Source of the DNA: a virus
DNA length: 38,564 nt
Reading direction: 5' to 3' (one strand)
UHGV virus genome: UHGV-1336581
Under the pieces are notes generated by a model. That model did not search any database, had not been told where the DNA came from, and saw only the letters and a program-made list of their open reading frames with translations. The position numbers and the translations under genes were made by a program. Shown piece after piece: positions 1 to 21,428 of this stretch. The stretch's first letter is position 1. Every line of letters starts with the position of its first letter.

Positions 1-25
1 GCAAGCGCGCTGCATCGGGTGAAGA

Positions 26-385
26 GTGGTATCTGTCAGGGAATTACGTGGGGGCGTAATGACGACGTTAACTCAATGCCAGCAGCAGGTGCTGGGTATG
101 CTGATTTCTTATCAGAAAGAGCGTGGCTTTCCGCCAACCAATCAGGAGGTGGCAACCATGCTGGGATACCGTTCGGTGAATGCAGCGGTGGAGCATCTTC
201 GCGCACTGGAGAAAAAAGGCCTCATCACGATAAAGCGTGGCGTGGCACGGGGGATAACGCTTCATACCGCTGTGAAGGACGACGACAGCGAGGCGGTCGG
301 GATTATCCGCGCACTGCTTGCCGGTGAGGAAAACGCCAGGCTGCGTGCAGCCCACTGGTTACATGAGAGGGGCCTGAAAGTATGA
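26..385 (+). CDS. LexA-like DNA-binding domain protein (winged-HTH only, no peptidase domain)
   Basis: Translation TQCQQQVLGMLISYQKERGFPPTNQEVATMLGYRSVNAAVEHLRALEKKGLITIKRGVARGITL resembles the LexA N-terminal DNA-binding domain; only 119 aa, so no S24 peptidase domain. True start may be the internal Met (MTTLTQ, about 59). Confidence 0.5.
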   Translation: MVSVRELRGGVMTTLTQCQQQVLGMLISYQKERGFPPTNQEVATMLGYRSVNAAVEHLRALEKKGLITIKRGVARGITLHTAVKDDDSEAVGIIRALLAGEENARLRAAHWLHERGLKV

Positions 386-771
386 AGCTGATTCTGCCTT
401 TTCCGCCCAGCGTGAACACGTACTGGCGACACCCCAACAAAGGGGCGTTTGCTGGTAAGAGCCTGATAAGCGCGGCGGGGCGCAAATTCCAGAGCGCGGC
501 GTGTGCAGCAATAGTTGAGCAGTTACGTCGTCTGCCAAAACCAACGTCGGCACCTGCTTCAGTGGAGATCGTGTTGTTTCCACCGGATAACCGGATCCGC
601 GATCTGGACAACTATAACAAGGCGCTGTTTGACGCCCTGACCCACGCGGGTGTGTGGGAGGACGACAGTCAGGTGAAAAGAATGCTGGTGGAGTGGGGGC
701 CGGTTATCCCGGAAGGGAAGGTCGAGATCACTATCAGTAAGTACGAGAAAACGGCGGGTGCAGCCGCCTGA
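382..771 (+). CDS. rusA: RusA-family Holliday junction resolvase
   Basis: N-terminal LPFPPSVNTYWRH and the RDLDNYNKALFDALTHAGVWEDDSQV acidic motif are typical of RusA; start overlaps the upstream stop; lambdoid ninR context. Confidence 0.85.
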   Translation: MKLILPFPPSVNTYWRHPNKGAFAGKSLISAAGRKFQSAACAAIVEQLRRLPKPTSAPASVEIVLFPPDNRIRDLDNYNKALFDALTHAGVWEDDSQVKRMLVEWGPVIPEGKVEITISKYEKTAGAAA

Positions 772-790
772 TTAAGAGGAGAAACGAAGT

Positions 791-1588
791 ATGAATAATC
801 TGATGGTCATTGATGGTATTGAAGTTCGTCGTGATGCTTATGGGCGTTACAGCCTGAACGATCTGCACAGGGCTGCCGGTTCTCAGGATAAGCATAAGCC
901 TGCATTTTGGCTCCGCAATGAGCAAACCGAACGTTTAATAAGCGAGTTGCAGATTTGCAACTCGGTCAATATAGAGCCAGTTAACGTTAGTCGTGGCGGA
1001 AATAACCAGGGGACGTATGTCTGCAAAGAACTGGTGTATGCCTATGCAATGTGGATCAGCCCGTCATTCCATCTGAAGGTGATCCGTACTTTCGATATGG
1101 TAACCAGCGCACCGGAAAAATTATCCGGGCAGGCTGCTGACAAGATGCAGGCTGGTGTGATTCTGCTGGACTTTATGCGTCGGGAGTTAAACCTGTCTAA
1201 CTCATCTGTGCTTGGTGCCTGTCAGAAACTCCAGGAGGCTGTTGGCTTACCGAATCTGGCACCGCGCTATGCCATTGATGCTCCTGCTGACGCGCCTGAT
1301 GGCTCAAGTCGCCCCACGCTGTCGCTGAGTGCACTGCTGAAACAGTATGGTATCCGCCTTACGGCTAATCAGGCATATCACCAGATGGTGAAGCTGGGGA
1401 TCGTCGAGCAGCGCGAACGATACAGCCGTACCTCGATTAACAACATCAAAAAATTCTGGTCGCTGACAGCGAAAGGCTGCATGTTCGGCAAGAACATCAC
1501 CAGTCCCGCAAATCCGCGCGAGACGCAGCCGCATTTCTTCGAATCCCGATTCCCTGAGCTGTTAAAGCTGCTCGATACCGTTCATTGA
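791..1588 (+). CDS. KilA-N domain protein
   Basis: N-terminal region (IDGIEVRRDAYGRYSLNDLHRAAG...AFWLRNEQTERLI...GTYVCKELVYAYAMWISPSFHLKVI) matches the KilA-N DNA-binding fold; RBS AGGAG upstream. Confidence 0.6.
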   Translation: MNNLMVIDGIEVRRDAYGRYSLNDLHRAAGSQDKHKPAFWLRNEQTERLISELQICNSVNIEPVNVSRGGNNQGTYVCKELVYAYAMWISPSFHLKVIRTFDMVTSAPEKLSGQAADKMQAGVILLDFMRRELNLSNSSVLGACQKLQEAVGLPNLAPRYAIDAPADAPDGSSRPTLSLSALLKQYGIRLTANQAYHQMVKLGIVEQRERYSRTSINNIKKFWSLTAKGCMFGKNITSPANPRETQPHFFESRFPELLKLLDTVH

Positions 1589-1589
1589 G

Positions 1590-2585
1590 GTGACTGTGAG
1601 AGCACTACTGACCCCTGAAATTGCCCCGCGTATGGGGATCGTATTGTTCAGACCAGGTTCAGAGCTGATGCCCCTGTTTATGCAGGGGCGTGTCCTGCTG
1701 GAGCCTGAGCCGGAACGTTATTCATCTTTCGCCAGTGGTGCCGTTCCGGCGGCATCACAACCGCTGGCGGATGATCCTGCCGTTCGGGCCGTGTTCCGCA
1801 ATGAGGCAGTGATCCGTCGTGCTGGTGGCGTGGAATGTCTTGAAAGCTGGTTACTTCGTGAAAAAAGCTGTCAGTGGCCTCATTCCGACTGGCATAGCGA
1901 GAACATGACAACAATGCGACACGCGCCGGGCGCAATCCGTCTGTGCTGGCACTGTGATAATCAGCTGCGCGATCAGTTCACGGAACGGCTGGAATCAATG
2001 GCAACGGATAACTGTGCCCGCTGGGTGTTGTCTGTTGTGCGTCGGGATCTCGGTTTTGATGATAGTCACGTTGTGACAATGCCGGAACTGTGCTGGTGGC
2101 TGATTCGTAATGACCTGGCGGATGCCTTACCGGAAAGTGCAGCCCGTAAGGCACTGAGATTACCGAAGCCTGTTGTGCCGTCTGTTACCCGGGAAGGTGA
2201 CCTTGTGCCTTCGGTTCCTGCCACCAGCATCATCCAGGATAAAGCGAAAAAGGTGCTGGCGCTGAAAGTGGATCCGGAGTCGCCGGAGTCTTTTATGTTA
2301 CGCCCTAAACGTCGCCGCTGGGTTAACGAAAAGTACACGCGCTGGGTTAAGACGCAGCCGTGTGCATGTTGTGGAAAGCCTGCTGATGATCCCCACCACC
2401 TGATAGGTCACGGTCAGGGTGGAATGGGTACAAAAGCGCATGACCTCTTTGTGTTGCCTTTGTGCAGAAAGCATCACGACGAGCTGCATGCGGATACCGT
2501 GGCATTTGAAGAGAAGTATGGCTCCCAGCTGGAGCTGATATTTCGTTTTATCGATCGTGCGCTGGCAACTGGCGTGCTGGCCTGA
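1590..2585 (+). CDS. DUF968-family prophage protein (YdfU-like)
   Basis: C-terminal Cys/His-rich block [43 protein letters not shown] typical of DUF968 proteins found between rusA and Q in lambdoid prophages. Confidence 0.55.
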
Positions 2586-2587
2586 TT

Positions 2588-2974
2588 TTGTGGAGAAAGT
2601 TGATGCGTGATATTCAAATGGTTCTTGAACGTTGGGGTGCATGGGTGGCAAATAATCACGAGGATGTCACTTGGTCGTCTATTGCTGCAGGATTTAAAGG
2701 ACTAATCCCTTCAAAAGTAAAATCCCGCCCGCAATGTTGTGACGATGACGCGATGATCATTTGTGGGTGTATGGCTCGCCTGAAAAAGAACAACAGCGAT
2801 TTGCACGATTTATTAGTGGATTACTATGTAGGAGGTATGACATTTATGGCGCTTGCCCGTAAACATGGGCGTTCTGATTGCTGGGTTGGGCGTTTATTGC
2901 AAAAAGCGGAAGGAGTAGTTGATGGTATGTTGATAATGCTAGATATTGAATTGGAAATGGAACGTAAAATTTAG
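2588..2974 (+). CDS. Late-gene antitermination protein Q (phage 21/82 type)
   Basis: Size, position (after rusA, before lysis genes) and sequence ([14 protein letters not shown]...[34 protein letters not shown]) consistent with QuuD-like Q, recalled from memory; real start probably the internal Met near 2603. Confidence 0.65.
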
Positions 2975-3203
2975 TTATGTTATGAATAAATAAATGCTAA
3001 TGATTTTTGTAAGATAGCTCATTTTATGTCCATAGGTGATGTATGCATTAATATGATTAATTTGTCTCCTTATAAAAATAAGATTATGTAAATAATAACA
3101 AAGGGTGACATTATTAAGTGTTGCTTTTTCTTAGTAAGTTGTTATCCTACTTAAGGTTGAATGATATTGTATCGAATAAAGTTGCTTATATAGAATTATT
3201 TTT

Positions 3204-3731
3204 ATGTTATGGCTTATTGAGTTAGTTAATAGGATGATTGAATCAATGCTTTCAAATGTAATTTTAAGTGGAGCTATGTCCACGTTATTGGCTGCATTTC
3301 TAATTTTTGTGTTTAAGGAGTATATAAAAAGGCCACCTAATTTTTCAGGGGTGTTTGAGATCGAGTGTAAAACGCTAAAATCATCATATAATTCATATGT
3401 AAACCTAACTACATTCTATACATTAGTGTTGATTTGTGATAATAACACTATAGAAGGACATATTGAAAAAATAAAAGATATCGAAAATGATGGGAATGAA
3501 AGAAAATATATTGGCGTGCATCGCAATATTGGCGATGTCAATGGTGTAATTAAAAGAAATTACTTAAGACCTAACCATGCTTCGTTGAATATAAAAATGC
3601 ATGGTGATAAGAGGGATTATACTATTATGCTATATTTTAAGAAGGTGAATACGAAAAATATGAAAGGAACTTTTTTATCTACTGCTGCAGATTCTTCTGG
3701 AGATGTTAAGTGGCAGCGAAAAAATTTTTAA
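3204..3731 (+). CDS. Hypothetical membrane-anchored protein (AT-rich moron, gene 1)
   Basis: Uninterrupted 175-codon ORF in a strongly AT-rich block; predicted N-terminal transmembrane helix (LSNVILSGAMSTLLAAFLIFVF); no recognisable family. Confidence 0.5.
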   Translation: MLWLIELVNRMIESMLSNVILSGAMSTLLAAFLIFVFKEYIKRPPNFSGVFEIECKTLKSSYNSYVNLTTFYTLVLICDNNTIEGHIEKIKDIENDGNERKYIGVHRNIGDVNGVIKRNYLRPNHASLNIKMHGDKRDYTIMLYFKKVNTKNMKGTFLSTAADSSGDVKWQRKNF

Positions 3732-4354
3732 TTTATTTACTGTCGTTGCCATATTTAATAATGGCTTCGATTATCATAAAGCTTAAAGTTAAAAGTATAA
3801 TTGATGATTATGAGAAATGTACTACTTATATTTACTGTAACTCGAAGAAATATAATAACATTTCTCCTGTTATGATTGATATATTAAGGTTAGCAGAGGA
3901 TCATCGACAATTATTGCATAGAGGGATTGACCCCATTGCAATCATTAGAACTTTTTATCTGAGGATATTTAAAAATATACACCAAGGAGCGAGCACTATA
4001 GAACAGCAGTTTGTGAGAACTATAACTAAAAGATACGAAAAAACAATACGTAGAAAGATAAGAGAGCAGATATTGGCTATATTGATTAGAAATGTATCAA
4101 CTCCAGATGATATATGTAAGTGTTATCTTTCTTGTTGTTACTATGGCTATGGAACTTATGGGATAGATAATCTTTTAAAAAAGAAACAAAATATCAGTGA
4201 TTTTGATATTGTTGCAATGATTAAATATCCATTCAGGGGAGAAGTTGTTTCAGTTACAGAGGAACGATTTAAACATAGGTCGCTCTATCTTTCCACTTTA
4301 TATAAATTAAATGCACAAAGGGATATGATTTTTTTGCGAAAATATAGTGGGTGA
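3710..4354 (+). CDS. Peptidoglycan glycosyltransferase (GT51 / MtgA-like transglycosylase domain) protein (moron gene 2)
   Basis: Four GT51 motifs in canonical order: AEDHRQLLHRGIDP (EDxxFxxHxG), GASTIEQQFVR (GxSTxTQQ), RRKIREQILAILI (RKxxE) and DDICKCYLSCCYYGYG (ILELYLNxVYxG-like); N-terminal hydrophobic anchor as in MtgA. Overlaps gene 1 by about 20 nt. Confidence 0.6.
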   Translation: MAAKKFLIYLLSLPYLIMASIIIKLKVKSIIDDYEKCTTYIYCNSKKYNNISPVMIDILRLAEDHRQLLHRGIDPIAIIRTFYLRIFKNIHQGASTIEQQFVRTITKRYEKTIRRKIREQILAILIRNVSTPDDICKCYLSCCYYGYGTYGIDNLLKKKQNISDFDIVAMIKYPFRGEVVSVTEERFKHRSLYLSTLYKLNAQRDMIFLRKYSG

Positions 4355-4552
4355 TTATGTTAAGTGTATTTTATTATGTGTCAAAAAGTTTAGTCATCTC
4401 TGCTTAATGTATAATCGTGAATGTTTTTATTCAGATTTTATGCATGTCAAGTTGATGAGTGCCGTCGACATAAGATATGGGGATAATGAATAGTTTACAA
4501 TCGTAAATAATAGAATATCCTGTTAAAAGTGGTTACTTCTCCACGCAGCTTA

Positions 4553-4580
4553 AACCCGCCGTCGAGCGGGTTTTGTCGTT
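4553..4580 (+). terminator. Rho-independent terminator-like hairpin (possible tR' or moron terminator)
   Basis: Perfect 7-bp stem AACCCGC/GCGGGTT with 6-nt loop followed by TTGTCGTTT; located between the moron and the holin gene. Confidence 0.4.
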
Positions 4581-4725
4581 TCTGGGTCTGGGGATTCCTT
4601 GGTCCTAGCCTATCCCGCAGTTATCCATTAACTCGGCTTCTTTGACGTTTCCGCTTCTGATTTGCGGTACATGATGTTTCCTCAATTTGCACCTGCTGTA
4701 TCAGCGAGGTGAGAGATAACTACAA

Positions 4726-5052
4726 ATGCCTCATAACCCAAATACCTGGCTGGAGTTGGTCCAGAGCTGGTGGCGTGGAGACACACCGCTGGGCGCAGTG
4801 ATTATGTCGATCGTTATGGCTGGTTTACGTATTGCCTATTTTGGCGGCGGTGGCGGCTGGAAACGAAAAACACTCGAAATTTTGCTCTGTGGCGCTCTGA
4901 CGCTGACATTTGCATCCGCTCTTGAGTATGTCGGATGGCCTAAATCACTTTCTGTTGCCATTGGTGGTGGTGTTGGGCTGATCGGTGTCGATGCTATTCG
5001 TGGGGCAGCAATGCGAGTAATCGGTAACAAATTTGGTAGCTCGAAGGAGTAA
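4726..5052 (+). CDS. Holin (lysis module)
   Basis: Small protein with several hydrophobic helices and a charged C-terminus, immediately upstream of the endolysin with a 3-nt gap; start may be further in. Confidence 0.55.
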   Translation: MPHNPNTWLELVQSWWRGDTPLGAVIMSIVMAGLRIAYFGGGGGWKRKTLEILLCGALTLTFASALEYVGWPKSLSVAIGGGVGLIGVDAIRGAAMRVIGNKFGSSKE

Positions 5053-5055
5053 TTT

Positions 5056-5532
5056 ATGCAGGCACTAAATTCCCAGCGTAAAGCTTTCCTTGATATGGTG
5101 GCATGGTCAGAAGGAACGGATAACGGGCGACAACCGACACGTAACCACGGTTATGACGTTATTGTTGGTGGTGAACTGTTTACTGATTACTCCGATCACC
5201 CTCGTAAACTTGTCACGCTAAACCCAAAACTCAAATCAACAGCAGCCGGGCGCTACCAGCTTCTTTCCCGTTGGTGGGATTCCTATCGTAAGCAGCTTGG
5301 CCTGAAAGACTTCTCTCCGAAAAGCCAGGACGCTGTGGCATTGCAGCAGATTAAAGAGCGTGGCGCTTTACCGATGATTGATCGCGGTGATATTCGTCAG
5401 GCAATTGACCGTTGCAGCAATATCTGGGCTTCACTGCCGGGCGCTGGTTATGGTCAGTTCGAGCATAAGGCTGACAGCCTGATTGCAAAATTCAAAGAAG
5501 CAGGCGGAACGGTCAGAGAGATTGAGGTATGA
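5056..5532 (+). CDS. R: Endolysin, lambda R-type lytic transglycosylase
   Basis: Near-identity over the whole length to lambda R as I recall it (NSQRKAFLDMVAWSEGTDNGRQPTRNHGYDVIVGGELFTDYSDHPRKLVTLNPKLKS...). Confidence 0.9.
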   Translation: MQALNSQRKAFLDMVAWSEGTDNGRQPTRNHGYDVIVGGELFTDYSDHPRKLVTLNPKLKSTAAGRYQLLSRWWDSYRKQLGLKDFSPKSQDAVALQQIKERGALPMIDRGDIRQAIDRCSNIWASLPGAGYGQFEHKADSLIAKFKEAGGTVREIEV

Positions 5533-6790
5533 GCAGAGTAACCGCGATTATTTCCGCTCTGGTTACCCGAACCGCGACAAACCCTATACCGAAGACCTGG
5601 GGAAAATCACTTTCCGCCCGTCCATCACAGCTTATGTGGTGGGAGATGACTGCTTTGACCAGCGCGATCGCCTGATTGACGCGCTGAATAAACCCGGTCC
5701 CGGCACGCTTGTCCATCCGACTTACGGTGAGCTGAAAGTCTGTGTTGACGGGGAAGTTCGGGTCAGCACATCGAAGAGTGAAGGGCGTATTGTCCGCTTT
5801 GACCTGAAGTTTGTCGAAGCGGGAGAACTCTCTTACCCCACTTCAGGTGCGGCGACGGCGCAGACGCTGATGTCATCCTGTTCTGCACTGGATGACTGCA
5901 TCAGTGACAGCTTCAGTGGTTTCAGTATCGATGGCGTGGCAGATTTTGTGCAGAACGACGTCGTCGGTAATGCCAGCACAATGCTTGGGTATGTTTCTGA
6001 TGCGATGAAAGTGGTGGATTCTGCCGTATCGGATGCCGCCAGACTGTTGCAGGGGGATATCTCGGTACTTCTGCCGCCGCCATCGTCAGGCAAAAATTTC
6101 GTTGAGCAGGTGCAGAAAATGTGGCGTACCGGGAAACGCCTTTATGGTAACGCCAGCGACCTGGTCACCATGATCAAAACGCTTTCCGGTGTCAGCCTCG
6201 GCAGCGATCTGCAACCGCGCGGCGTCTGGAAAACGGACAGTAAAACCACCGCCACGGCGACGCAGCAGCGTAACGTGGTTGCCAGCACCCTTCGTACGAC
6301 CGCAATCAGCGAAGCGGCGTATGCCGTCACCCGATTGCCTGCGCCAACAACTTCCGCGGTGATGCAGAATGCCGCAGTGGGGCAGGCAACAACACCCGCG
6401 CAGAGCACTGGCTGGCCTTCCGTCACGCATCCGGCACTGAACAATGCACCGGCGGTGAAAAGCACGGTTGACCTGCCGACGTGGGAAGAACTGACTGACA
6501 TTCGCGACACACTGAATACGGCAATTGATAAGGAGTTGTCCCGAACAACCAGTGATGCGCTGTTTCTGGCGCTGCGCCGGGTGAAAGCAGATCTGAATGC
6601 GGATATCAACACGCGCCTTGAACAGTCTGCACGGATCATTCAGCGCACGCCGGATGAGGTTTTACCCGCGCTGGTGCTGGCGGCGACCTGGTTTGATAAC
6701 GCGGCGCGTGACGCGGACATTATCCGGCGTAATGCCATTACGCATCCCGGCTTTGTGCCGGTGATCCCTCTGAAGGTGCCAGTGCAATGA
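5483..6790 (+). CDS. Mu gpN-like tail DNA circulation protein, 5'-truncated at a deletion junction
   Basis: Tail-protein-like sequence begins about 5564 (YPNRDKPYTEDLGKITF...GPGTLVHPTYGEL) in a different frame from the Rz remnant; the ORF's first ~25 codons overlap R and Rz and are unlikely to be native. Followed by the tightly coupled baseplate genes. Confidence 0.5.
   Translation: MQNSKKQAERSERLRYEQSNRDYFRSGYPNRDKPYTEDLGKITFRPSITAYVVGDDCFDQRDRLIDALNKPGPGTLVHPTYGELKVCVDGEVRVSTSKSEGRIVRFDLKFVEAGELSYPTSGAATAQTLMSSCSALDDCISDSFSGFSIDGVADFVQNDVVGNASTMLGYVSDAMKVVDSAVSDAARLLQGDISVLLPPPSSGKNFVEQVQKMWRTGKRLYGNASDLVTMIKTLSGVSLGSDLQPRGVWKTDSKTTATATQQRNVVASTLRTTAISEAAYAVTRLPAPTTSAVMQNAAVGQATTPAQSTGWPSVTHPALNNAPAVKSTVDLPTWEELTDIRDTLNTAIDKELSRTTSDALFLALRRVKADLNADINTRLEQSARIIQRTPDEVLPALVLAATWFDNAARDADIIRRNAITHPGFVPVIPLKVPVQ
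5529..5566 (+). pseudogene. Rz spanin 5' remnant (first ~12 codons only)
   Basis: ATGAGCAGAGTAACCGCGATTATTTCCGCTCTGGTTA encodes MSRVTAIISALV, the start of lambda Rz (ATGA overlap with R stop); similarity ends abruptly near 5566. From memory of lambda Rz, not aligned. Confidence 0.5.
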
Positions 6791-7866
6791 ACGATAACGT
6801 CACGCTACGGGTAAATGGCCGGGAGTGGAATGGCTGGACATCGGTGCGCATCGGTGCCGGTGTTGAACGGCTGGCGCGGGATTTCAGTGTGGAGATCACC
6901 CGCCAGTGGCCGGGAGATGAGGGTATTACCACGCTTCAGTCGCGCATTAAAAACGGTTCAAAAGTGGAGGTGCTGATTGGTGATGAGCTGGTGATCACCG
7001 GCTGGGTGGAGGCGACGCCCGTTCGTTACGATGCCCGTTCGGTCAGCACCGGTATTGCCGGACGTAGTCTGACCGCTGACCTGATTGACTGTGCAGCCGA
7101 ACCGACACAGTTTAACGGACGATCGCTGGTACAGATTGCGCAGGCGCTTGCTGCGCCTTTCGGCATTGAGGTGGTGAACAGCGGTGCGCCGTCGGGTGTT
7201 ATTCCTGATGTCCAGTCTGATCACGGTGAAACGGTGATTGAGGTGATCAACAAAATACTCGGTCAGCAGCAGGCGCTGGCTTACGACGACCCGCACGGCA
7301 GGCTGGTGATTGGTGGTATTGGCTCAACGCGGGCACATACCGCGCTGGTACTTGGGGAAAACATCCTTTCCTGCGATACGGAGAAGAGTATCCGGGAGCG
7401 GTTTTCTGTTTACCAGGTGGCGGGGCAGCGTGCCGGAAACGACGATGATTTCGGTGAGGCCACCACCACCGCGCTGCGGGCCCGCACAGAGGACGCATTT
7501 ATTGCCCGTTACCGTCCGATGTATATCAGGCAGACAGGGCAGGCCACGGGGGCTGGCTGTATTGCGCGTGCTGACTTTGAAGCCCGGCAACGGGCGGCGC
7601 GGACGGATGAAACCACCTATGTGATGCAGGGCTGGCGACAGGGTAACGGTACGCTGTGGCAGCCCAACCAGCGGGTGATTGTCTTCGATCCGGTCTGTGG
7701 TTTCGACAATACCGAACTGCTTGTTTCGGAAGTCACGTTTACTCAGGACCAGAACGGCACCCTGACGGAAATCCGTGTCGGCCCACCTGATGCTTATCTG
7801 CCTGAACCCGAAGCCCCCGGCGCGCGGAAAAAGAAAAAAGCCAGAGTACAGGAGGACCCGTTCTGA
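6787..7866 (+). CDS. Baseplate/tail protein (Mu gp44 P-like)
   Basis: Position and size in a Mu/e14-type baseplate cluster; ATGA start/stop overlap with the upstream gene. Confidence 0.65.
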   Translation: MNDNVTLRVNGREWNGWTSVRIGAGVERLARDFSVEITRQWPGDEGITTLQSRIKNGSKVEVLIGDELVITGWVEATPVRYDARSVSTGIAGRSLTADLIDCAAEPTQFNGRSLVQIAQALAAPFGIEVVNSGAPSGVIPDVQSDHGETVIEVINKILGQQQALAYDDPHGRLVIGGIGSTRAHTALVLGENILSCDTEKSIRERFSVYQVAGQRAGNDDDFGEATTTALRARTEDAFIARYRPMYIRQTGQATGAGCIARADFEARQRAARTDETTYVMQGWRQGNGTLWQPNQRVIVFDPVCGFDNTELLVSEVTFTQDQNGTLTEIRVGPPDAYLPEPEAPGARKKKKARVQEDPF

Positions 7867-8414
7867 TGAGGACGATTGAAGCCATGCAGCGACAACTCCT
7901 CGGCCTGATTGGGCGGGCCGTGGTGAAAAGCATCAGTGCCGCCACGAAATGTCAGACCGTGGATGTGTCTCTGATTGCCGGTGAACCCAAAGCTGGGGTT
8001 GAACATCTTGAACCCTACGGTTTTACCGCAAGGGCAAACAGCGGTGCGGAAGCGGTGGTGTTGTTTCCGGATGGCGACCGTTCTCATGCGGTGGTTGTTA
8101 CGGTGTCGGACCGACGCTACCGCCTAAAAGGGCTGCAGACGGGTGAGGTGGCTGTCTATGACGATCAGGGGCAGTCTGTGACGCTGACCCGGGAGGGGAT
8201 CGTGGTGGACGGTGCAGGTAAAACGATCACGTTTCGCAATGCGCCCAGAGCACGTTTTGAAATGGACCTGGAAGTGACCGGACAGGTGAAAGACCTGTGC
8301 GACTCCGGCGGCACCACCATGTCAGCGATGCGGCTTGCCTATAACGGGCATCGTCACAGAGAGAACGGTCAGGGCAGTAACACCGACAAACCTGATAAAG
8401 CGATGGAGGCATGA
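7866..8414 (+). CDS. Baseplate assembly protein V-like spike (Mu gp45-like)
   Basis: 182-aa protein in the gpV position of the cluster; overlapping stop/start with neighbours. Confidence 0.65.
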   Translation: MRTIEAMQRQLLGLIGRAVVKSISAATKCQTVDVSLIAGEPKAGVEHLEPYGFTARANSGAEAVVLFPDGDRSHAVVVTVSDRRYRLKGLQTGEVAVYDDQGQSVTLTREGIVVDGAGKTITFRNAPRARFEMDLEVTGQVKDLCDSGGTTMSAMRLAYNGHRHRENGQGSNTDKPDKAMEA

Positions 8415-8839
8415 TGGAACTGTGGCTGACGGTGAACGGTAAACGCACCTGCGCCAGCGCACCGCTGGATCCGCTGACCCGCGCCGTGGTGATTTCCCTG
8501 TTTACCTGGCGGCGGGCGGAGCCTGATGACAACGCCGACGTCCCGATGGGATGGTGGGGGGATACCTGGCCTGCGGTACAGAATGACCGTTACGGCTCCC
8601 GGCTGTGGCTGCTTCAGCGCAGCAAACTGACCAATCAACTGGTGCAGACGGTAAAGGGGTATATCCGCGAATGCCTGCAATGGATGATTGATGACGGCGT
8701 GGTGTCCCGTATTGATCTGGATATCCGCCGCACCGGGATTAATGAACTGGGTAACAGTATCACTCTCTGGCGTCGTGACGGACCGGTAATGATTTCTTTT
8801 GATGATCTGTGGAGTGCGATAACGCATGGCGGACAGTGA
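8411..8839 (+). CDS. GP46-family baseplate protein (gpW-like)
   Basis: 142-aa protein between the V-like and J-like genes, translationally coupled to both. Confidence 0.6.
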   Translation: MMELWLTVNGKRTCASAPLDPLTRAVVISLFTWRRAEPDDNADVPMGWWGDTWPAVQNDRYGSRLWLLQRSKLTNQLVQTVKGYIRECLQWMIDDGVVSRIDLDIRRTGINELGNSITLWRRDGPVMISFDDLWSAITHGGQ

Positions 8840-9884
8840 ATTTCAGCGCCCGACGCTGGCAGAAAATATCAGTATGCTCCGTAACGATTTATTCGCCAGG
8901 CTGGACGTCAGCGACACGCTCCGGCGCATGGATGAAGACGTGCGGGCAAAGGTGTATGCGGCGGTGCTGCATACGGTTTACGGTTACATCGATTATCTGG
9001 CAATGAACATGCTGCCTGACCTGTGCGATGAGTCCTGGCTGGCGCGACATGCTGCGATGAAACGGTGTCCGCGCAAGGGGGCCACGGCTGCCAGCGGGTA
9101 TATGCGCTGGGAAGGTGTCAGCGATGGCCTGAAGGTGACCGCCGGGAGTGTTATTCAGCGCGATGACCTGGTGCAGTACACGGCAACTGCCGATGCAACC
9201 AGCTCCGGTGGTGTCCTGCGCGTGCCGATCGCCTGCTCAAGTGCAGGCGCGGTCGGTAACGCTGACGACGGTACGTCATTAATCCTGGTCACGCCGGTCA
9301 ATGGTCTGCCGTCTTCCGGCGTGGCAGATACACTGACAGGCGGATTTGATACTGAAGAGCTGGAAACGTGGCGCGCCCGCGTCATTGAGCGGTATTACTG
9401 GACGCCGCAGGGCGGGGCTGACGGGGACTATGTCGTCTGGGCTAAAGAAGTGCCCGGCATTACCCGCGCATGGGCATACCGTCACTGGATGGGAACGGGG
9501 ACAGTCGGTGTGATGATTGCCAGCAGTGACCTGATTAATCCCATTCCGGAAGAATCAACGGAAACGGCGGCAAGACAACATATCTGGCCACTGGCCCCGG
9601 TGGCAGGCTCTGATTTGTATGTGTTCAGGCCGGTGGCACATACGGTGGATTTTCATATCCGCGTGACGCCGGACACACCAGAAATACGGGCTGCCATTAC
9701 CGCGGAGTTGCGTTCGTTCCTGCTGCGTGATGGTTATCCGCAGGGAGAACTGAAGGTATCGCGTATCAGTGAGGCGATTTCCGGTGCGAACGGGGAATAC
9801 AGCCATCAGTTGCTTGCACCGGTGGACAATATCTCCATTGCGAAAAACGAACTGGCGGTACTGGGGACGATTTCATGGACGTGA
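8826..9884 (+). CDS. Baseplate J-like protein (Mu gp47 / JayE-like)
   Basis: 352-aa protein with the size and position of baseplate J; followed by a YmfQ-like gene and tail fibre genes as in e14. Confidence 0.7.
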
Positions 9885-10459
9885 CAAACGATGATTACAT
9901 CCGCCTGTTATCGGCACTGTTGCCGCCCGGTCCGGCGTGGTCAGCCAGCGATCCGGCGATTGCCGGTGCGGCACCGTCATTAACCCGTGTTCATCAGCGT
10001 GCGGATGCCCTGATGCGGGAGCTGGATCCGCGCACCACCACTGAACTGATAAACCGCTGGGAGCGTCTGTGCGGTCTGCCGGATGAATGTATTCCGGCGG
10101 GAACGCAGACCCTTCGCCAGCGTCAGCAACGGCTGGATGCGAAGGTTAACCTGGCGGGCGGCATCAACGAGGATTTTTACCTTGCACAGCTTGCTGCCCT
10201 GGGGAGACCAGACGCCACCATCACGCGATACGACAAAAGCACGTTCACCTGCTCATCTGCATGTACTGACGCTGTGAACGCGCCGGAATGGCGGTATTAC
10301 TGGCAGGTCAACATGCCAGTCGCCACCAACACCACCTGGATGACATGTGGCGATCCCTGTGATTCCGCACTGCGTATCTGGGGCGACACAGTTGTCGAGT
10401 GTGTGCTTAACAAACTCTGCCCGTCGCATACCTACGTAATTTTTAAATATCCGGAGTAA
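9875..10459 (+). CDS. Tail protein, YmfQ / Mu gp48-like
   Basis: 194-aa protein directly upstream of the tail fibre gene, overlapping the J-like gene stop. Confidence 0.6.
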
Positions 10460-10462
10460 TCC

Positions 10463-11113
10463 ATGCATCGTATAGACACGAAAACCGCGCAGAAGGATAA
10501 GTTCGGCGCGGGTAAGAACGGTTTTACCCGTGGTAACCCCCAGACCGGCACGCCTGCCACCGTTCTGGATGATGACTACTTTGACATGTTGCAGGAAGAA
10601 CTTTGTAGCGTTGTTGAGGCATCCGGTGCCAGTCTGGAGAAGGCGCAGCACGACCAGCTGCTTACCGCGCTTCGTGCGCTGCTGTTAAGCCGCAAGAATC
10701 CGTTTGGCGATATCAAATCGGATGGCACCGTGAAAACGGCTCTCGAAAACCTTGGTTTGGGAGAAGCGGCGAAAAGGGATGTAGGCACAGGAGAAAATCA
10801 GATACCGGATATGTCAGCCTGGAAAAGAAATCCGAGTTCTAATCGCTGGAGAAAATTGCCTGATGGAACCATCATTCAAATGGGAATATCAGCATCAGGG
10901 CCATTAGGCTCACCTGTAAATATCACCCTGCCGATATCTTTCAGCAATACCAATTATTGTGTTGTTGCATCGTACGATAATGCACGGTCAGATGTGTCAA
11001 CAATGGTTAGTTTTGCAGCGTTACCTGTTTCACCATCGCAATTTTCCCTGATGTCATCTGTGACTGAGCAAGGAATAAATCCTTTTGCTTACTGGATTGC
11101 TTTTGGAGATTAA
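10463..11113 (+). CDS. Tail fibre protein: constant N-terminal part fused to variable C-terminal segment (current orientation of the invertible region)
   Basis: The ORF crosses the left recombination site near 10741-10766 (...[10 protein letters not shown]...); the part downstream lies inside the invertible segment. Confidence 0.7.
10741..10766. repeat. Invertase crossover site, left (gix/pix-like, inside tail fibre gene)
   Basis: TCTCGAAAACCTTGGTTTGGGAGAA is an imperfect inverted copy of the site at 12636-12661; 14 contiguous bases identical (TTGGTTTGGGAGAA). Confidence 0.65.
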
Positions 11114-11116
11114 TAA

Positions 11117-11536
11117 ATGGACAGATACTTCTATTCACAAAAAGAAAATGGTTTTTTTACCGATTTAAATAAAGCACCTTCAGATGTTGTTGAGATAACC
11201 ACGGATGAATGGCTGTTACTACTGGATGGTCAGGATAATGGCATGAAAATAGTCAGCAATCAGGAGGGATATCCGGTTTTGACAGAGCAACCACCTTTAT
11301 CAAAAGAAAACCTTATTGCATTGGCGGATTTGAAAAAAAGAAAACTTATTAATGAAGCCAACGAGCACATGAACAGCAGACAATGGCCTGGTAAAGCGGC
11401 TATTGGTCGTCTGAAAAGTGAGGAACTGGCGCAATATAATTTGTGGCTGGATTATCTGGACGCACTGGAACTGGTTGATACCTCCAGTGCTCCAGATATT
11501 GAATGGCCTACGCCTCCGGCAGTTCAGGCCAGATGA
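11117..11536 (+). CDS. Tail fibre assembly protein (Tfa, active-orientation copy)
   Basis: C-terminal ...VDTSSAPDIEWPTPP motif typical of Tfa chaperones; directly follows the fibre gene. Confidence 0.7.
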   Translation: MDRYFYSQKENGFFTDLNKAPSDVVEITTDEWLLLLDGQDNGMKIVSNQEGYPVLTEQPPLSKENLIALADLKKRKLINEANEHMNSRQWPGKAAIGRLKSEELAQYNLWLDYLDALELVDTSSAPDIEWPTPPAVQAR

Positions 11537-12113
11537 CATCCGGCGCGGTGCTGGTATCTGTTGCCGTCACCGCGTCAATGTAATCCAGCACAGCGTTAAG
11601 TCTGGTTGTTTCTGCCTGCGTCAGTTTACGTCCGGCCTGTAATTTCAGCTGAATCAGACTAATGGAAGCCATTGCTGCATCAATCAGTGACTGGCGCTGT
11701 GCTTCTGCCGCGTCTACTGCGGCATTATGCTGTGCCTCAGTATCTGTCACCCATTTCTCACCATCCCATTTATCGTATGGCGTTAACGGGACGATAGTTG
11801 TTGTATTTTCAGGGTAATCACCCGGAGTTGTGATTTCTTTTGATTCTCCCGTTTCGGTGTTATAGACAACTTCACCGCGATGGTCTGGCACATATTCCCA
11901 TGAGTTTAAATCTGCCGAACGGCAGATTGCATAACCAGCCTTATGTGTTCCAGGAGCATCTAAACAGGAATATGCAGGGATACCGACACCCACAGCAAGA
12001 TATTCAGTTGATGCAGAAATATACTCCCGTATCTCACTGTCATAGTTATAAACGGTAATCTCTCCTGCCTTTGTGGCAATAAATTTACTATTTAAGATGG
12101 CGTTATACATCAT
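11508..12113 (-). CDS. Tail fibre assembly protein (alternate Tfa inside the invertible segment)
   Basis: C-terminal ...TDTSTAPDVIWPELPEA; 3' end overlaps the plus-strand tfa convergently, as in Gin/Pin/Cin invertible regions. Confidence 0.7.
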   Translation of the reverse strand: MMYNAILNSKFIATKAGEITVYNYDSEIREYISASTEYLAVGVGIPAYSCLDAPGTHKAGYAICRSADLNSWEYVPDHRGEVVYNTETGESKEITTPGDYPENTTTIVPLTPYDKWDGEKWVTDTEAQHNAAVDAAEAQRQSLIDAAMASISLIQLKLQAGRKLTQAETTRLNAVLDYIDAVTATDTSTAPDVIWPELPEA

Positions 12114-12688
12114 GCAGCCCTCACAATGTAATTAAATGAAATATTACGTGGGCGTGTCTCTGCTGCACCGACAATACTGGTACTCAACCCCGTCGCTGTT
12201 CGTTTGTTATTTTTATTTCCTTCAATCAGACAGTTGTAATCATCATTACCAATTAACGAATTAGTGGCATCAATACCGTCCGGGGACAAGGCATTAGTTG
12301 TAGAACTTAAAGTCAGCATCTCGTCTGAACTTGGAAGATTTTTTAATGGTGTTTCATTGCGAGAAATACCCGCGTAAAAAAAGGACTCATGCCTGTGCGC
12401 TTCAAAAGAGTCATCCTGAAGACTTAGCAAGGTACGTCCCGCATCCACTCCACGCCCGTCATCCCAGCCACGAATAAACTCACCACGTAAATCAGGCAAT
12501 TTATTTGTCGGATAAGCCTTTGCCAGTTCCGGGTATTCTTCAGCAGAAAAAGCGGCACCGTTGCATTTCAGCCAGCCTGTTGGCGGAGTGGCGGAAGGCC
12601 ACGGAACAGGCACGCCAACGGGTAATGCCGAACCTTCTCCCAAACCAACGTTTATGAAAATGCAGAAATAACGAGCAAATGGCATCAT
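12110..12688 (-). CDS. Alternate tail fibre C-terminal segment (silent in this orientation)
   Basis: Minus-strand ORF whose 5' end abuts the right recombination site; the GLGEG junction mirrors GLGEA of the expressed fibre. Codons upstream of the crossover site are not a real N-terminus. Confidence 0.6.
   Translation of the reverse strand: MMPFARYFCIFINVGLGEGSALPVGVPVPWPSATPPTGWLKCNGAAFSAEEYPELAKAYPTNKLPDLRGEFIRGWDDGRGVDAGRTLLSLQDDSFEAHRHESFFYAGISRNETPLKNLPSSDEMLTLSSTTNALSPDGIDATNSLIGNDDYNCLIEGNKNNKRTATGLSTSIVGAAETRPRNISFNYIVRAA
12636..12661. repeat. Invertase crossover site, right (gix/pix-like, just upstream of pin)
   Basis: TTCTCCCAAACCAACGTTTATGAAAA; its reverse complement matches the left site; lies immediately 5' of the invertase gene. 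Confidence 0.65.
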
Positions 12689-13269
12689 TCCTGCTTTTGT
12701 CAGGGATATCTACCATGCTTATTGGCTATGTACGTGTGTCAACAAATTACCAGAACACAGATCTACAACGTAATGCGCTGAACTGTGCAGGATGCGAGCT
12801 GATTTTTGAAGACAAGATAAGCGGTACAAAGTCCGAAAGGCCGGGACTGAAAAAACTGCTCAGGACATTATCGGCAGGTGACACGCTGGTGGTCTGGAAA
12901 CTGGACCGACTGGGGCGCAGTATGCGGCATCTTGTCGTGCTGGTGGAGGAGTTGCGCGAACGAGGCATCAACTTTCGTAGTCTGACGGATTCAATTGATA
13001 CCAGTACCCCAATGGGGCGCTTTTTCTTTCATGTGATGGGGGCCCTGGCTGAAATGGAACGAGAACTGATTGTTGAACGAACAAAAGCTGGACTGGAAGC
13101 TGCTCGCGCACAGGGACGAATTGGTGGACGTCGTCCCAAACTTACACCAGAACAATGGGCGCAGGCCGGACGATTAATTGCAGCAGGAATTCCTCGCCAG
13201 AAGGTGGCGATCATCTATGATGTTGGTGTATCGACACTGTATAAGAAGTTTCCGGTCGGAGATAAATGA
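12679..13269 (+). CDS. pin: Serine recombinase, DNA invertase Pin/Gin/Hin family
   Basis: MLIGYVRVSTNYQNTDLQRNAL...GDTLVVWKLDRLGRSM...HTH C-terminus; near-identical to e14 Pin as I recall it. Real start probably the MLIGY Met about 12 codons in. Confidence 0.9.
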   Translation: MASFLLLSGISTMLIGYVRVSTNYQNTDLQRNALNCAGCELIFEDKISGTKSERPGLKKLLRTLSAGDTLVVWKLDRLGRSMRHLVVLVEELRERGINFRSLTDSIDTSTPMGRFFFHVMGALAEMERELIVERTKAGLEAARAQGRIGGRRPKLTPEQWAQAGRLIAAGIPRQKVAIIYDVGVSTLYKKFPVGDK

Positions 13270-15856: not shown

Positions 15857-16427
15857 CCCACAACATCTCCAAAAGTATATGTTTCAAGCGTTCTATTGTT
15901 AGAAGCCTCACCGATTGGACTTTGTCTACGACAGCTAACTGAAAACAGCTCGTTGCTGAAATTGCAGGCCAGTATAGCGGTTCTGCCTACTCAACGTGAA
16001 ATGGCTCGTGGGCAACTACATCAACTGAGCGAGAATACTAAGGTGAAACTGGGTGTGTGAATTGGTGCAAGAGAAATGCTTCCCATAATTCAAGATATCC
16101 CAATATAAGTACATTCCGAATGTCTGCTTCATACCTTGAGATATTCGACAAACTTTTTATGGAAGAAAGGCATTTGTGTCTTGTTGGTATATGGATGCTG
16201 TGAAAGAGCAGAATGCCACTTGTTGAGGGAGATAGATGATGCACAGCAAATTAAGCTGATGAAAAAAACAAAAAGCTACATCTTCTGTGGACTTTCATGT
16301 CACCAAGAGTAGCAACTCCCTAGCGTCTCATCACCGTCTGGTTGGTGTCCTGCTGAGACTGCTAACTTCCTGTTTTTTGATGTTGTATTTACACTGTCCA
16401 ATCATGATTGGCGGGCTGGCGGGAGTT

Positions 16428-16465
16428 GAAACCGTAGCACGTCGTATGCAAGATCGTGCTGCGGT
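16428..16465 (+). repeat. Cassette-boundary repeat, copy B (truncated, about 38 bp core)
   Basis: GAAACCGTAGCACGTCGTATGCAAGATCGTGCTGCGG matches the first ~35 bp of copies A and C, then diverges; lies just 3' of the minus-strand GIY-YIG gene. Confidence 0.6.
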
Positions 16466-16486
16466 TTATGTTTATCACTTGAAGAT

Positions 16487-17356
<870 letters not shown>

Positions 17357-17446
17357 CTAACCCTTTGAATTTACATAGCGCAAAAAGATACCTTTCCTCA
17401 TAATGTGAGCTAATTTTATGTTTCGTTTGATGATCGGGTCGGTCTC

Positions 17447-17630
17447 GAAACCCGTAGCCACGTCGTATGCAAGAACGTGCTACGACTGGCTGGTGAACTT
17501 CCGATAGTGCGAGTATTGAATGATTTCCAACTGTTATCGATTTTGCGTATTTTTTGCATGAGAGGATTTTTACCTCCTCCCACCGATCCTCCATGGCTTT
17601 ACGCCAGTGTCTCTGGTCTGCTATGTGCCA
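17447..17630 (+). repeat. Cassette-boundary repeat, copy C (about 180 bp)
   Basis: GAAACCCGTAGCCACGTCGTATGCAAGAACGTGCTACG...GGCTGGTGAAC...GATAG...TTCCAACTGTTAT...TGAGAGGATTT...CCATGGC...GTCTCT...CTATGTGCC; same orientation as copy A. Confidence 0.7.
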
Positions 17631-17676
17631 AGAGCGGACTTTGCAAAATGGGGGTTATTTCAATCAAAACGTAACG

Positions 17677-18621: not shown

Positions 18622-19061
18622 TATTATTGCTACTTTTTTTGTTTATCATTATTTTCGTGAAACTTCAACAATTTTATCCAAAAGCTAAGGGCAAAGACTT
18701 ATATAATTATACTTGTCATCGTTAGCGATTATATAGAGTAGTGGCGCTGACCTGCTCCCTAGTGATTCACACAGAATGCTGTTAGTAATGTCCGTTCCTC
18801 GCTCATAACAGACATAAACTTCAGTTATGGCATAAAGGTATGCATGCTGGGTGGGGAAAGTATGAAGGAAAAGAAGACTGCTGCGCCGTTTGTCGTCACG
18901 TTTATCTTCATTGGCTATGCAAGTCGTAATACAGGGTGGGACAAAACTGAGACACATAAGGCCTCGCAATGGCTTGCAAGGCTTTACATGTTTTGATGTG
19001 GTGGGACGTGTGAGCGCAGTGTTGATGGGATAATACTTTGAATTAGAAGCGGATTCTTATA

Positions 19062-19107
19062 ATTCGTAATGCGAAGGTCGTAGGTTCGACTCCTATTATC
19101 GGCACCA
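19062..19107 (+). other. 3' fragment of a tRNA-Thr gene (about 46 nt, ends ...GGTTCGACTCCTATTATCGGCACCA); attachment-site core
   Basis: T-arm GTAGG/TTCGACT/CCTAT, acceptor 3' strand and CCA present, anticodon-loop CGTAATG partly present, but no 5' acceptor strand (GCCGATA) upstream, so not an intact tRNA. Match to thrW is from memory. Confidence 0.6.
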
Positions 19108-19220
19108 TTCTAACGTCTCCCCAAGTCTACTCAAGTATTTAAAAACCTCTTATAATCCGCATGTTAGCGCCCCTTTTAGTCTTTTGACGTCTACTTAAGT
19201 ACCCCAAAATCTACAGTCAA

Positions 19221-19242
19221 TTGGGGGTACTTTTGGGGGTAT
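19221..19242 (+). repeat. TTGGGGGTACTTTTGGGGGTAT tandem motif (candidate integrase arm-type site)
   Basis: Identical 22-mer recurs at 38399-38420; inverted copies of TGGGGGTAC near 19197 and 19263 flank it; lies directly upstream of int. Confidence 0.5.
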
Positions 19243-19273
19243 TTGCTGTTCGGTTTAGTGGAGGTACCCCCAA

Positions 19274-21414: not shown

Positions 21415-21428
21415 CGCACCATACCGCA

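Follow-up and report, generated by a model that had tools for sequence, protein, structure and literature searches.

The stretch of DNA analysed here, hereafter the window, is the 38,564-nucleotide virus genome UHGV-1336581, in which a set of lambda-type lysis genes passes directly into a Mu-like tail module. The features on which the analysis rests are as follows.

1 to 5565, plus strand: left flank, holding a nin-like region, Q, a moron and the lysis genes; colinearity with the intact siblings extends as far as the breakpoint
2603 to 2974, plus strand: antiterminator Q, 123 aa, apparently intact (Pfam Phage_antitermQ, positions 1-118 of 118, E = 2.9e-51)
4726 to 5052, plus strand: holin S of the lambda family (Pfam Phage_holin_3_1, E = 5.7e-25)
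5056 to 5532, plus strand: endolysin R, a lambda-type transglycosylase, 158 aa, intact (PDB 1AM7, E = 2.7e-101, residues 3-158)
5529 to 5565, plus strand: Rz stump, 12 codons and one base
5564 to 6790, plus strand: 5'-truncated DNA-circulation or baseplate gene (Mu N, gp43-like), codons 35-442, from alignment, Pfam and PDB
6787 to 7866, plus strand: baseplate hub protein (Mu P, gp44-like), 359 aa (Pfam GpP-like_1st, Gp44-like_2nd and GpP_4th)
7866 to 10459, plus strand: gp45-, gp46-, gp47 (J)- and gp48-like baseplate genes of 182, 141, 352 and 194 aa (Pfam)
10463 to 12685, no strand assigned: invertible segment with a tail-fibre gene, two tail-fibre-assembly genes and an alternative fibre C-terminus (Pfam Gp53-like_C, Caudo_TAP and Collar)
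12715 to 13269, plus strand: Pin-type serine DNA invertase (Pfam Resolvase and HTH_7)
13520 to 18969, minus strand: cargo between the invertase and attR (PADLOC, Pfam)
18937 to 19109, plus strand: attR, 97.1% identical to SfV 20467-20639 (attP region)

The lambda-type lysis cassette is incomplete, with holin and endolysin intact, Rz reduced to 12 codons, and Rz1 absent. R gave no Pfam match at E ≤ 0.001, and its identity was settled by a PDB sequence search, which returned lambda lysozyme (1AM7). The ATG of Rz at 5529 overlaps the stop codon of R, which ends at 5532, in an ATGA, and the first 12 residues of Rz, MSRVTAIISALV, are identical at all 12 positions to RzpD of an intact relative, with no similarity thereafter, much as an earlier note on this DNA had described the gene (about 12 codons, with the ATGA overlap). 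Beyond this point the Rz reading frame continues through N DNA, out of register with the N gene, and yields a meaningless ORF of 48 aa (5529-5675). An annotation of an internal stop in the Q gene of a sibling hinted that Q might also be defective; this was rejected, since Q of the window spans the whole Pfam model.

The loss of Rz similarity falls at a TA dinucleotide, positions 5564-5565, which is the deletion junction and which, in a three-row alignment of the window with the Rz side and the N side, is common to both parental sequences (2 bp of microhomology). Nucleotide similarity to the left flank and its lambdoid lysis cassette stops at 5565, and similarity to the right flank and its DNA-circulation gene starts at 5564; the earlier note, which had similarity ending near 5566, was correct to within one base. 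Aligning the junction region to lysis cassettes and to N genes pinned the breakpoint, revealing no intact Rz and a clear match to a tail gene. The sequence past the junction begins at codon 35 of the Mu-N-like gene, in a frame other than that of Rz (5564 - 5529 = 35, not a multiple of 3).

The N remnant lies in the frame of an ORF spanning 5483-6790, and 398 of its 408 residues (98%) are identical to residues 35-442 of an intact 442-aa DNA circularization protein. Pfam DNA_circ_N is matched at profile positions 20-88 only, positions 1-19 being unmatched, and the alignment to Mu protein N (PDB 9ki1, E = 7.4e-7) starts at residue 52, in agreement with the prior reading of a Mu gpN-like gene without its 5' end. 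Both the complete N-terminal DNA_circ_N domain and the own start codon of a full-length Mu N or DNA circulation protein (PF07157) are absent, and the sole in-frame upstream starts are TTG codons inside R. Gene callers stretch the remnant to one of these, at 5483, and the 435-aa "DNA circularization protein" called here is an artefact: its N-terminal 27 residues come from the end of R and the Rz stump, translated in the wrong frame. Two pseudogenes, an Rz stump and a start-less N, would be the correct annotation of the locus.

Downstream of N, the tail module adjoins the fibre genes and comprises a Mu-like set by Pfam (DNA_circ_N, GpP-like, Phage_Mu_Gp45, GP46, Baseplate_J and Phage_Mu_Gp48). 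The hub protein has the same length (359 aa) as SfV orf16, and the gp45- to gp48-like genes match those of SfV, SfIV and the E. coli siblings at 97-98% without gaps, and hence are free of frameshifts. Inverted repeats of 20 nt (10747-10766 and 12634-12653, 95% complementary) bound the fibre segment, and the invertase region is 92.6% identical in nucleotide sequence to stfE-pinE of e14. The cargo includes a PifA-like KAP NTPase (13520-15856; PADLOC PifA, E = 7.3e-79; Pfam KAP_NTPase), a PD-T4-3 GIY-YIG protein (16487-17311; PADLOC, E = 6.9e-140; Pfam LEM-3_GIY-YIG) and three unknown ORFs. Within attR, positions 19062-19109 are the 3' 48 nt of the tRNA-Thr gene thrW, identical at 48 of 48 positions to thrW of E. 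coli FDAARGOS_1277; no complete tRNA gene was found in the window. Integration at thrW is also seen in a 57-kb scaffold that bears the same deletion (L012), where proA and then int stand at the left end. The view that the baseplate, fibre and invertase block is complete needs some correction: the block is retained as in e14, but it falls short of strict completeness, since N, which is truncated here, belongs to the baseplate in the solved Mu structure (PDB 9ki1).

What was lost can be read from intact relatives. Positions 1-5565 correspond to 15302-20866 of the thrW prophage of E. coli FDAARGOS_1277 (L008) at 99.5% identity, and positions 5564-10764 to 35096-40296 of the same prophage at 97.0%, both without gaps and in the same order and orientation, with 14,231 bp between the two breakpoints in this intact sibling. 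In a second intact sibling (L011, NCBI GCA_043415355.1) the left flank is 99.87% identical and the match stops at the same base, 5565. According to the annotation of FDAARGOS_1277 and of TOE3, the missing segment carries the rest of Rz/Rz1, a bor/iss-like gene, an HNH endonuclease gene, terS, terL, the genes for portal, protease, major capsid, connectors, sheath and tube, the tail-assembly genes, the tape measure gene and the 5' end of N. When the 14,231-bp segment was compared with the window, neither blastn nor tblastx returned a single match, and the claim that the packaging, capsid, sheath, tube and tape-measure genes are missing stands on both this search and the comparison with intact relatives. 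The intact sibling's gene map suggests that the interval where SfV/e14-like phages carry cos went with the deleted segment. The exact length and content of the DNA deleted in the true ancestor may differ from these figures, since no single sequenced relative is the exact parent, as indicated by the unequal identity of the two flanks to the same reference (99.5% versus 97.0%).

We consider it very probable that the scar at 5564/5565 represents one internal deletion of ∼14.2 kb in an SfV/e14-like prophage that an E. coli lineage carries at thrW, beside proA. Prophages of this type combine lambdoid control and lysis functions with a head of the HK97 type and a contractile tail like that of Mu, and the deletion extends from Rz codon 13 to codon 35 of the Mu-N-like gene.

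Because the ends share TA only, and no mobile element or recombinase site lies at them, the mechanism is likely to have been illegitimate, by microhomology-level end joining or replication slippage, as far as the scar itself can tell, rather than homologous or site-specific recombination. Recombination between homologous repeats was rejected, as the parental sites, compared over 300 bp around each, have no significant local similarity and share only chance 7-9-mers. An enzymatic deletion, by the Pin invertase of the element itself at pseudo-sites or by an IS element that has since departed, would be suggested by the active-looking pin and its inverted-repeat sites, and by the IS elements that interrupt sibling prophages (IS3 in FDAARGOS_1277, an IS in SfIV). 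However, the breakpoints match the 27-nt invertase site of the element at 13 of 27 positions, which is the random level (mean 12.7, 95th percentile 15), and alignment detects no IS sequence, target duplication or terminal repeat at the scar, where Rz passes straight into N. Both the Pin-mediated and the IS-mediated versions were rejected on these grounds, and we regard an enzymatic origin of the deletion as exceedingly improbable.

A junction of this kind might also have been produced by a misjoin of two prophage fragments, in which case it would be present in no cell. Short-read assemblies are often broken or misjoined at prophage repeats, and no genome spanning the junction was found by megablast and blastn among 5,426 complete RefSeq E. 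coli genomes, nor did an exact 34-mer over the junction match the species-representative genome contigs, a collection that is uninformative on this point since it holds one genome per species. Against this, carriers of the junction (k-mer ATTTCCGCTCTGGTTACCCGAACCGCGACAAACC) were found by exact-protein look-ups: the same 51-mer junction, with flanks 99.94-100% identical, is present in four datasets (ENA ERZ28623008, ENA ERZ1311641, JGI 3300056514 and Logan SRR15732320), which were sequenced independently and assembled with different assemblers at different centres. The 435-aa chimeric ORF is recorded, exactly, from an NCBI source as well. One carrier, the 57-kb scaffold mentioned above, runs from proA across the junction and holds proA, int (387 aa), cI, Q, S, R, the truncated N and the baseplate genes together, and an overlap of 2 bp is too short for a reproducible graph misjoin. 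There is next to no chance that the junction is chimeric; it is real, neither a chance event nor an assembly artefact, and its absence from complete E. coli genomes, considered for a time as a hint of an artefact or of a source other than E. coli, was dropped as an argument in view of the four independent assemblies. The carrier lineage is known from draft or metagenome assemblies only, and the deletion is inherited in several samples. Since the carriers differ by at most 6 substitutions across 10-17 kb, the deletion is recent.

The juxtaposition of lambda-type lysis genes and Mu-like baseplate genes invites the idea, present in the earlier note, that the deletion itself fused the two into a hybrid. 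The junction is as described there, but the hybrid architecture is ancestral and was not made by the deletion. The lambdoid regulatory and late gene order (cI/cro, replication genes, nin-like genes, Q, S, R, Rz), assembled by gene order and Pfam from the window and the contigs L003 and L012, is colinear with SfV, SfIV and the E. coli siblings, and the tail module has 96-97.6% nucleotide identity to SfV, SfII, SfIV and SfI (97.6% to SfV orf15-21, of which orf15-20 are described in the SfV record as resembling Mu N, P and gp45-48). A combination of lambdoid and Mu-like genes is natural to SfV-like phages, which have been described as lambdoid Myoviridae (PMC3603311), and both flanks are colinear parts of one such prophage. 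Recombination between two separate resident elements, one a lambdoid prophage and the other Mu-like or tailocin-like, would fit the high mosaicism of lambdoid phages and would predict flanks of different histories, such as the 99.5% and 97.0% identities to the best single reference might reflect. Yet SfV, SfIV, SKA5, FDAARGOS_1277 and TOE3 all hold the lysis cassette and the N-baseplate module within a single phage, in the same order and orientation and ∼14 kb apart, att sites at thrW of the kind typical for the SfV-like family flank the element, and ordinary exchange of modules among SfV-like phages, before the deletion took place, would be expected to leave flanks of unequal identity. A two-element origin is consequently very unlikely, and we retain a single deletion within one SfV-like prophage. 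An R-type tailocin, which would pair a lysis cassette with sheath, tube, tape-measure and baseplate genes but have no head genes, was likewise rejected, as the window contains no sheath, tube or tape-measure gene.

The outcome of the deletion would be a defective, "grounded" prophage, unable to package DNA or to build heads or tails. The complete virion gene set (terminase, portal, HK97-type capsid, sheath, tube and tape measure) has no member in the window, and the prophage is predicted to yield no virions and to lyse cells without a spanin. Q, holin, endolysin, five intact baseplate genes, the invertible fibre segment with pin, and the anti-phage cargo are retained, and integrase and repressor are present in sibling contigs with the same deletion. 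The case is one of ordinary prophage decay, and the element is not of a new kind.

Whether the remnant has been domesticated is a separate matter, compatible with the deletion and no competitor to it. Selection might have kept a derivative in which killing by virion production had ended while immunity, defence genes, a Q-S-R switch and a fibre reservoir were retained. The retained ORFs are all intact and free of frameshifts, defence cargo is present, the derivative occurs in several samples, and e14, with Lit and McrA, offers a precedent. The carriers, however, are at most 6 substitutions apart, and because the deletion is recent, intact ORFs are uninformative on selection; any benefit is putative, and we think domestication unlikely, if appreciably less so than the alternatives above. 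A fuller version, to which we would give somewhat less credence still, holds that the Rz-to-N derivative is a selected grounded form rather than mere decaying DNA, which, having shed just its virion genes, would make no phage but might provide repressor immunity, a Q-controlled holin-endolysin switch for suicide or release, PifA-like and PD-T4-3 defence, and a switchable fibre/baseplate cassette open to recombination with incoming SfV-like phages, and that the slot between pin and attR might be a general hotspot for defence genes (gtr in the Shigella phages, mcrA in e14, PifA-like and PD-T4-3 here).

Beyond annotation, the significance of the junction is slight; it provides a clean, base-resolved case of a prophage disabled by a single illegitimate deletion, in the phage family that also gave rise to e14 of E. 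coli K-12. Prophage-prediction tools may score the region as phage on the strength of its lysis and baseplate genes, though no particles could be expected to form. The defence cargo still present, like the tandem island at thrW, is biologically more interesting than the junction.

With none of the virion genes present, the element is best described as a defective derivative of the SfV-like "lambdoid Myoviridae" and not as a functional member. The Shigella flexneri serotype-converting phages SfV, SfII, SfIV and SfI have the same gene order, a thrW att region identical at 97.1% and a tail module identical at 97-97.6% from N to the fibre, and the lambda-type S/R lysis cassette of SfV and SfIV is 89.5-93% identical to that of the window. 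Unlike the element, these phages are inducible and complete, with genes for terminase, head, sheath, tube and tape measure, and they carry gtrA/B/type O-antigen genes (gtrABV in SfV) in the slot that holds defence-type cargo here. The intact thrW siblings (FDAARGOS_1277, TOE3 and GCA_043415355.1) occupy the same site by proA, are 99.5-99.9% identical in the left flank, and share the gene order as far as the lysis genes and once more downstream from N, but they keep the ∼14.2-kb Rz-to-N segment. With the S-R-Rz/Rz1 cassette of phage lambda, the element shares the S-family holin, the R endolysin and the overlap of the Rz start with the R stop, whereas its spanin genes are destroyed.

A close parallel is the cryptic prophage e14, located in icd of E. 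coli K-12. Relatedness among SfI, SfV and e14 has been reported, together with thrW integration (PMC3636060). The likeness drawn earlier to e14 proved closer than claimed: the immunity region of e14 (ymfK-ymfT-ymfL-ymfM) is 99.3% identical to the upstream part of the deletion-bearing contig L003, and its distal baseplate region, jayE-ymfQ-stfP, is 97.3% identical to 9097-10774 of the window. On an SfV-like backbone, both elements have lost morphogenesis genes by internal deletion and have kept the distal baseplate, the invertible fibre segment, pin and a pin-adjacent defence gene, with different breakpoints. Whereas e14 has two scars elsewhere, the oweE'-'aaaE chimera ymfN and a join of beeE (portal) to jayE (baseplate J), the element has one, at Rz/N, and its baseplate J is intact (352 aa); it lies at thrW and has neither the location nor the scars specific to e14. 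The cargo also differs, being mcrA and lit in e14, with mcrA in the pin-attR slot, and PifA-like and PD-T4-3 here. Finally, Q, the lysis genes and the stretch from N to gp46 are gone from e14, whereas Q, S, R and the whole P-to-gp48 set are kept here, and by these comparisons the element is a sibling of e14 and not e14 itself.

In megablast searches of 5,426 complete E. coli genomes, matches to the lysis cassette stopped at window position 5565, and matches to the DNA-circulation gene started at 5564. The best single reference was the intact prophage at thrW of E. coli FDAARGOS_1277 (L008), to which window 1-5565 aligned gapless at 99.5% identity (L008 15302-20866), and window 5564-10764 aligned gapless at 97.0% (L008 35096-40296). 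The segment missing from the window is L008 20867-35097, 14,231 bp. In a three-row alignment (the slash marks the breakpoint), the Rz side read ...CTGGTTA/TCTGC, the side of N, the Mu N-like DNA-circulation gene, read ...ATGAATA/CCCGAACC, and the window row read ...CTGGTTACCCGAACC; only the bases TA (5564-5565) were common to both parental sides. A still closer intact sibling (NCBI GCA_043415355.1) matched the left flank at 99.87%, with the match ending at the same base, beyond which it runs on into Rz1, Bor, HNH, terminase and portal. The earlier note had placed here a deletion joining lambdoid lysis genes to a Mu-like baseplate module, and its observation of the junction was right in every detail, as judged by alignments to L008, RzpD, a 442-aa N protein and Mu N.

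Two lysis genes precede the Rz start:

4726-5052, holin of the lambda family (Pfam Phage_holin_3_1, E 5.7e-25)
5056-5532, endolysin R, 158 aa (lambda lysozyme 1AM7, E 2.7e-101, whole length)

Both S and R are intact, and the Pfam model of Q was covered fully. The Rz start codon, ATG 5529, shares bases with the stop codon of R (ATGA), and the ORF from this ATG encodes MSRVTAIISALV, followed by unrelated sequence up to a stop at 5675. The first 12 Rz residues were all identical (12/12) to the start of RzpD of an intact relative, and the RzpD alignment gave no match beyond residue 12, in agreement with the proposal that Rz is cut to its first ~12 codons. The predicted product would be a 48-aa nonsense fusion.

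Past the junction lies, as had been proposed, an N-like gene in another frame and without its 5' end. A 435-aa ORF at 5483-6790, in a different frame from the Rz ORF, aligned from its residue 28 (window 5564) onward with residues 35-442 of a 'DNA circularization protein' of 442 aa (398 of 408 positions identical), matched Pfam DNA_circ_N from profile position 20 only, and gave an end-to-end alignment with Mu protein N (PDB 9ki1) from Mu residue 52 (E 7.4e-7). The truncated gene lacks its own start codon; upstream, the sole in-frame candidates, TTG 5483 and TTG 5522, both lie inside R, and no convincing ribosome-binding site was found for either. Gene callers start the 435-aa protein at TTG 5483. 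Exactly this sequence is recorded from NCBI, ENA and Logan, and 'DNA circularization protein' is among the names given to members of its cluster. The 435-aa protein of the databases is a gene-caller artefact, its first 27 residues coming from out-of-frame R and Rz DNA, and this annotation point is the most useful by-product of the analysis.

That megablast found no genome spanning the join among the 5,426 complete E. coli genomes could favor an assembly chimera. However, the same 2-bp junction was present in four independently produced assemblies, which excludes an artefact, and we assign the chimera a negligible probability. The 51-nt junction was found in 4 datasets with flanks 99.94-100% identical:

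ENA ERZ28623008, 57-kb scaffold
ENA ERZ1311641, 100% identical over 16,566 bp
JGI 3300056514
Logan SRR15732320

The exact 435-aa chimeric ORF was also found in public assemblies. Carriers differ by 0-6 substitutions in 10-17 kb, and this near-identity indicates one recent event, inherited within a lineage. One end of the independent 16,566-bp metagenome contig (ERZ1311641 NODE_760, 100% identical) falls on the very base at which the window starts; a shared repeat boundary, in the nin-like region common to many lambdoid prophages, seems to have interrupted both assemblies.

A recombinase- or IS-mediated deletion is highly improbable, since the three-row alignment revealed neither IS sequence nor duplication at the scar, and the parental sites resemble the Pin site only at random level. 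When these sites were compared with the 27-nt site at the invertible-segment ends, 13 positions matched (random mean 12.7, 95th percentile 15), and action of the Pin invertase on pseudo-sites was thus not supported. In the 300 bp around the two parental sites, nothing was common beyond chance 7-9-mers. The remaining ordinary explanation is illegitimate recombination, in which end joining or slipped replication would have acted at the 2-bp microhomology.

The window's relatives in the phage collection are the Shigella serotype-converting phages SfV, SfII, SfIV and SfI, and E. coli relatives such as SKA5, and across the N-to-fibre module its identity to SfV and SfIV is 97-97.6%. On the 57-kb scaffold, the left arm comprises proA, integrase (387 aa), early genes, a cI-type repressor, a cro-like gene, replication genes, RusA, KilA-N, DUF968, Q, S, R, truncated N and baseplate genes. 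The right end lies in the window:

18937-19109, SfV attP-like stretch
19062-19109, thrW 3' 48 nt, ending that stretch

Complete linear SfV and SfIV genomes carry the lysis cassette at the right end and N ~12 kb from the left end, so that in the circularly permuted integrated prophage the two are separated by ~14 kb and point the same way; L008 and the TOE3 prophage show exactly this spacing and orientation. In the SfV record, orf15-20 carry notes of similarity to Mu N, P and gp45-48, SfV-like phages have been defined as 'lambdoid Myoviridae' (Bobay et al., PMC3603311), and Sun et al. (PMC3636060) report a close relationship among SfI, SfV and e14 and describe thrW, beside proA, as the site where these phages integrate. 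Thus, although the deletion junction proposed earlier is supported by colinear intact relatives, the lambdoid and Mu-like combination is the family's ancestral architecture and was not made by this junction; only here could the heading of the earlier note mislead. Fusion of two separate elements is very unlikely, since the element is colinear with every intact relative and has att ends at thrW. The unequal flank identities (99.5% and 97.0%) show ordinary module exchange, and imply that the exact parent is not yet among sequenced prophages. At the left edge (window 1-62 against 59-385), the dam-type methyltransferase gene found between yfdN/PerC and a LexA-like gene in SfV, SKA5 and TOE3 is absent, leaving only a 62-nt stretch matching the gene's flank; FDAARGOS_1277 is arranged likewise, which marks this as a module difference separate from the deletion.

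The lost genes were read from the annotations of L008 and TOE3:

remainder of Rz, with embedded Rz1
iss/bor-like lipoprotein gene; HNH endonuclease gene
terS, terL, ymfR, portal, prohead protease, major capsid
head-tail connector and closure genes, tail terminator
sheath, tube, tail assembly protein, tape measure, small OB-fold gene
N 5' part (first 34 codons and 2 nt)

Neither blastn nor tblastx matched the 14.2-kb segment to any part of the window, so the genes are missing rather than moved, bearing out the claimed loss between lysis and baseplate. Because the segment includes the Rz-to-terS interval, where the linear SfV and SfIV records end, and cos packaging is reported for SfV and SfI (PMC3636060), the packaging site was presumably lost with it. 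Judging from lambda and Mu, an element without terminase, portal, capsid and presumably cos should be unable to package DNA, and one without sheath, tube and tape measure should be unable to build a tail or tailocin. On induction, Q-dependent transcription would give holin-endolysin lysis without spanin; lambda Rz mutants are known not to lyse when divalent cations are high. The retained baseplate block had been called complete. Its five baseplate genes align gapless to functional phages, but in the solved Mu structure (PDB 9ki1) N forms part of the baseplate, and with N truncated the set is not strictly complete. A selected, 'domesticated' remnant would be compatible with the deletion, not a rival to it, and we consider it rather unlikely; the carriers differ too little for intact ORFs to inform on selection.

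Other features lie on either side of the baseplate genes:

3204-4354, two-gene moron between Q and the holin gene
10747-10766 and 12634-12653, inverted repeats (20 nt, 95% complementary) bounding a 1.9-kb invertible segment
12715-13269, pin
within 13520-18969, minus strand, PifA-like KAP-family NTPase, 778 aa (PADLOC PifA E 7e-79)
within 13520-18969, minus strand, PD-T4-3 GIY-YIG protein, 274 aa (E 7e-140)
17322-17594, 17677-18621 and 18685-18969, minus strand, three ORFs without family match
19110-38564, second integrative island, tandem at the same thrW site
19274-20488, its P4-type integrase
21917-22717, its AntA-domain protein
25453-26865, its RepA-like AAA_25 helicase

The moron, which sits where Stx phages carry stx, encodes an unknown protein (161-175 aa) and a second one of 214 aa that has a peptidoglycan glycosyltransferase domain (Pfam Transgly, PF00912), with a strong terminator-like hairpin 3' of it (4552-4573). 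The invertible segment holds alternative fibre C-termini and two tail-fibre-assembly genes, like the e14 P segment and the Mu G segment. The tandem island is 99.9% identical to an E. coli UTAK-5 island directly beside thrW-proA without a prophage, its matching record has GapS1 and SDH-family serine proteinase genes annotated, and TOE3 has a P4-like satellite at the equivalent position. The pin-to-attR slot, with the PifA-like and PD-T4-3 genes here, gtrABV in SfV and mcrA in e14, seems to be a hotspot for cargo and defence genes in SfV/e14-like prophages.

In the K-12 annotation, e14 reads ymfK, ymfT, ymfL, ymfM, ymfN, ymfR, beeE, jayE, ymfQ, stfP, tfaP, tfaE, stfE, pinE, mcrA, where ymfN is a chimeric replication-protein/terminase ORF, beeE a portal fragment and jayE a baseplate J fragment; e14 is an SfV-like prophage carrying two internal deletion scars. 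The analogy with e14 drawn earlier is apt and can be made exact: identity to e14 is 99.3% in the immunity region (on a deletion-bearing public contig) and 97.3% between window 9097-10774 and jayE-ymfQ-stfP. This makes the present element a sibling of e14 that decayed via a different, smaller, single deletion. It uses another att site, and keeps Q, S, R and genes P through gp48, which are all gone from e14. The element is a base-resolved new instance of a well-known phenomenon, the defective SfV/e14-like prophage.
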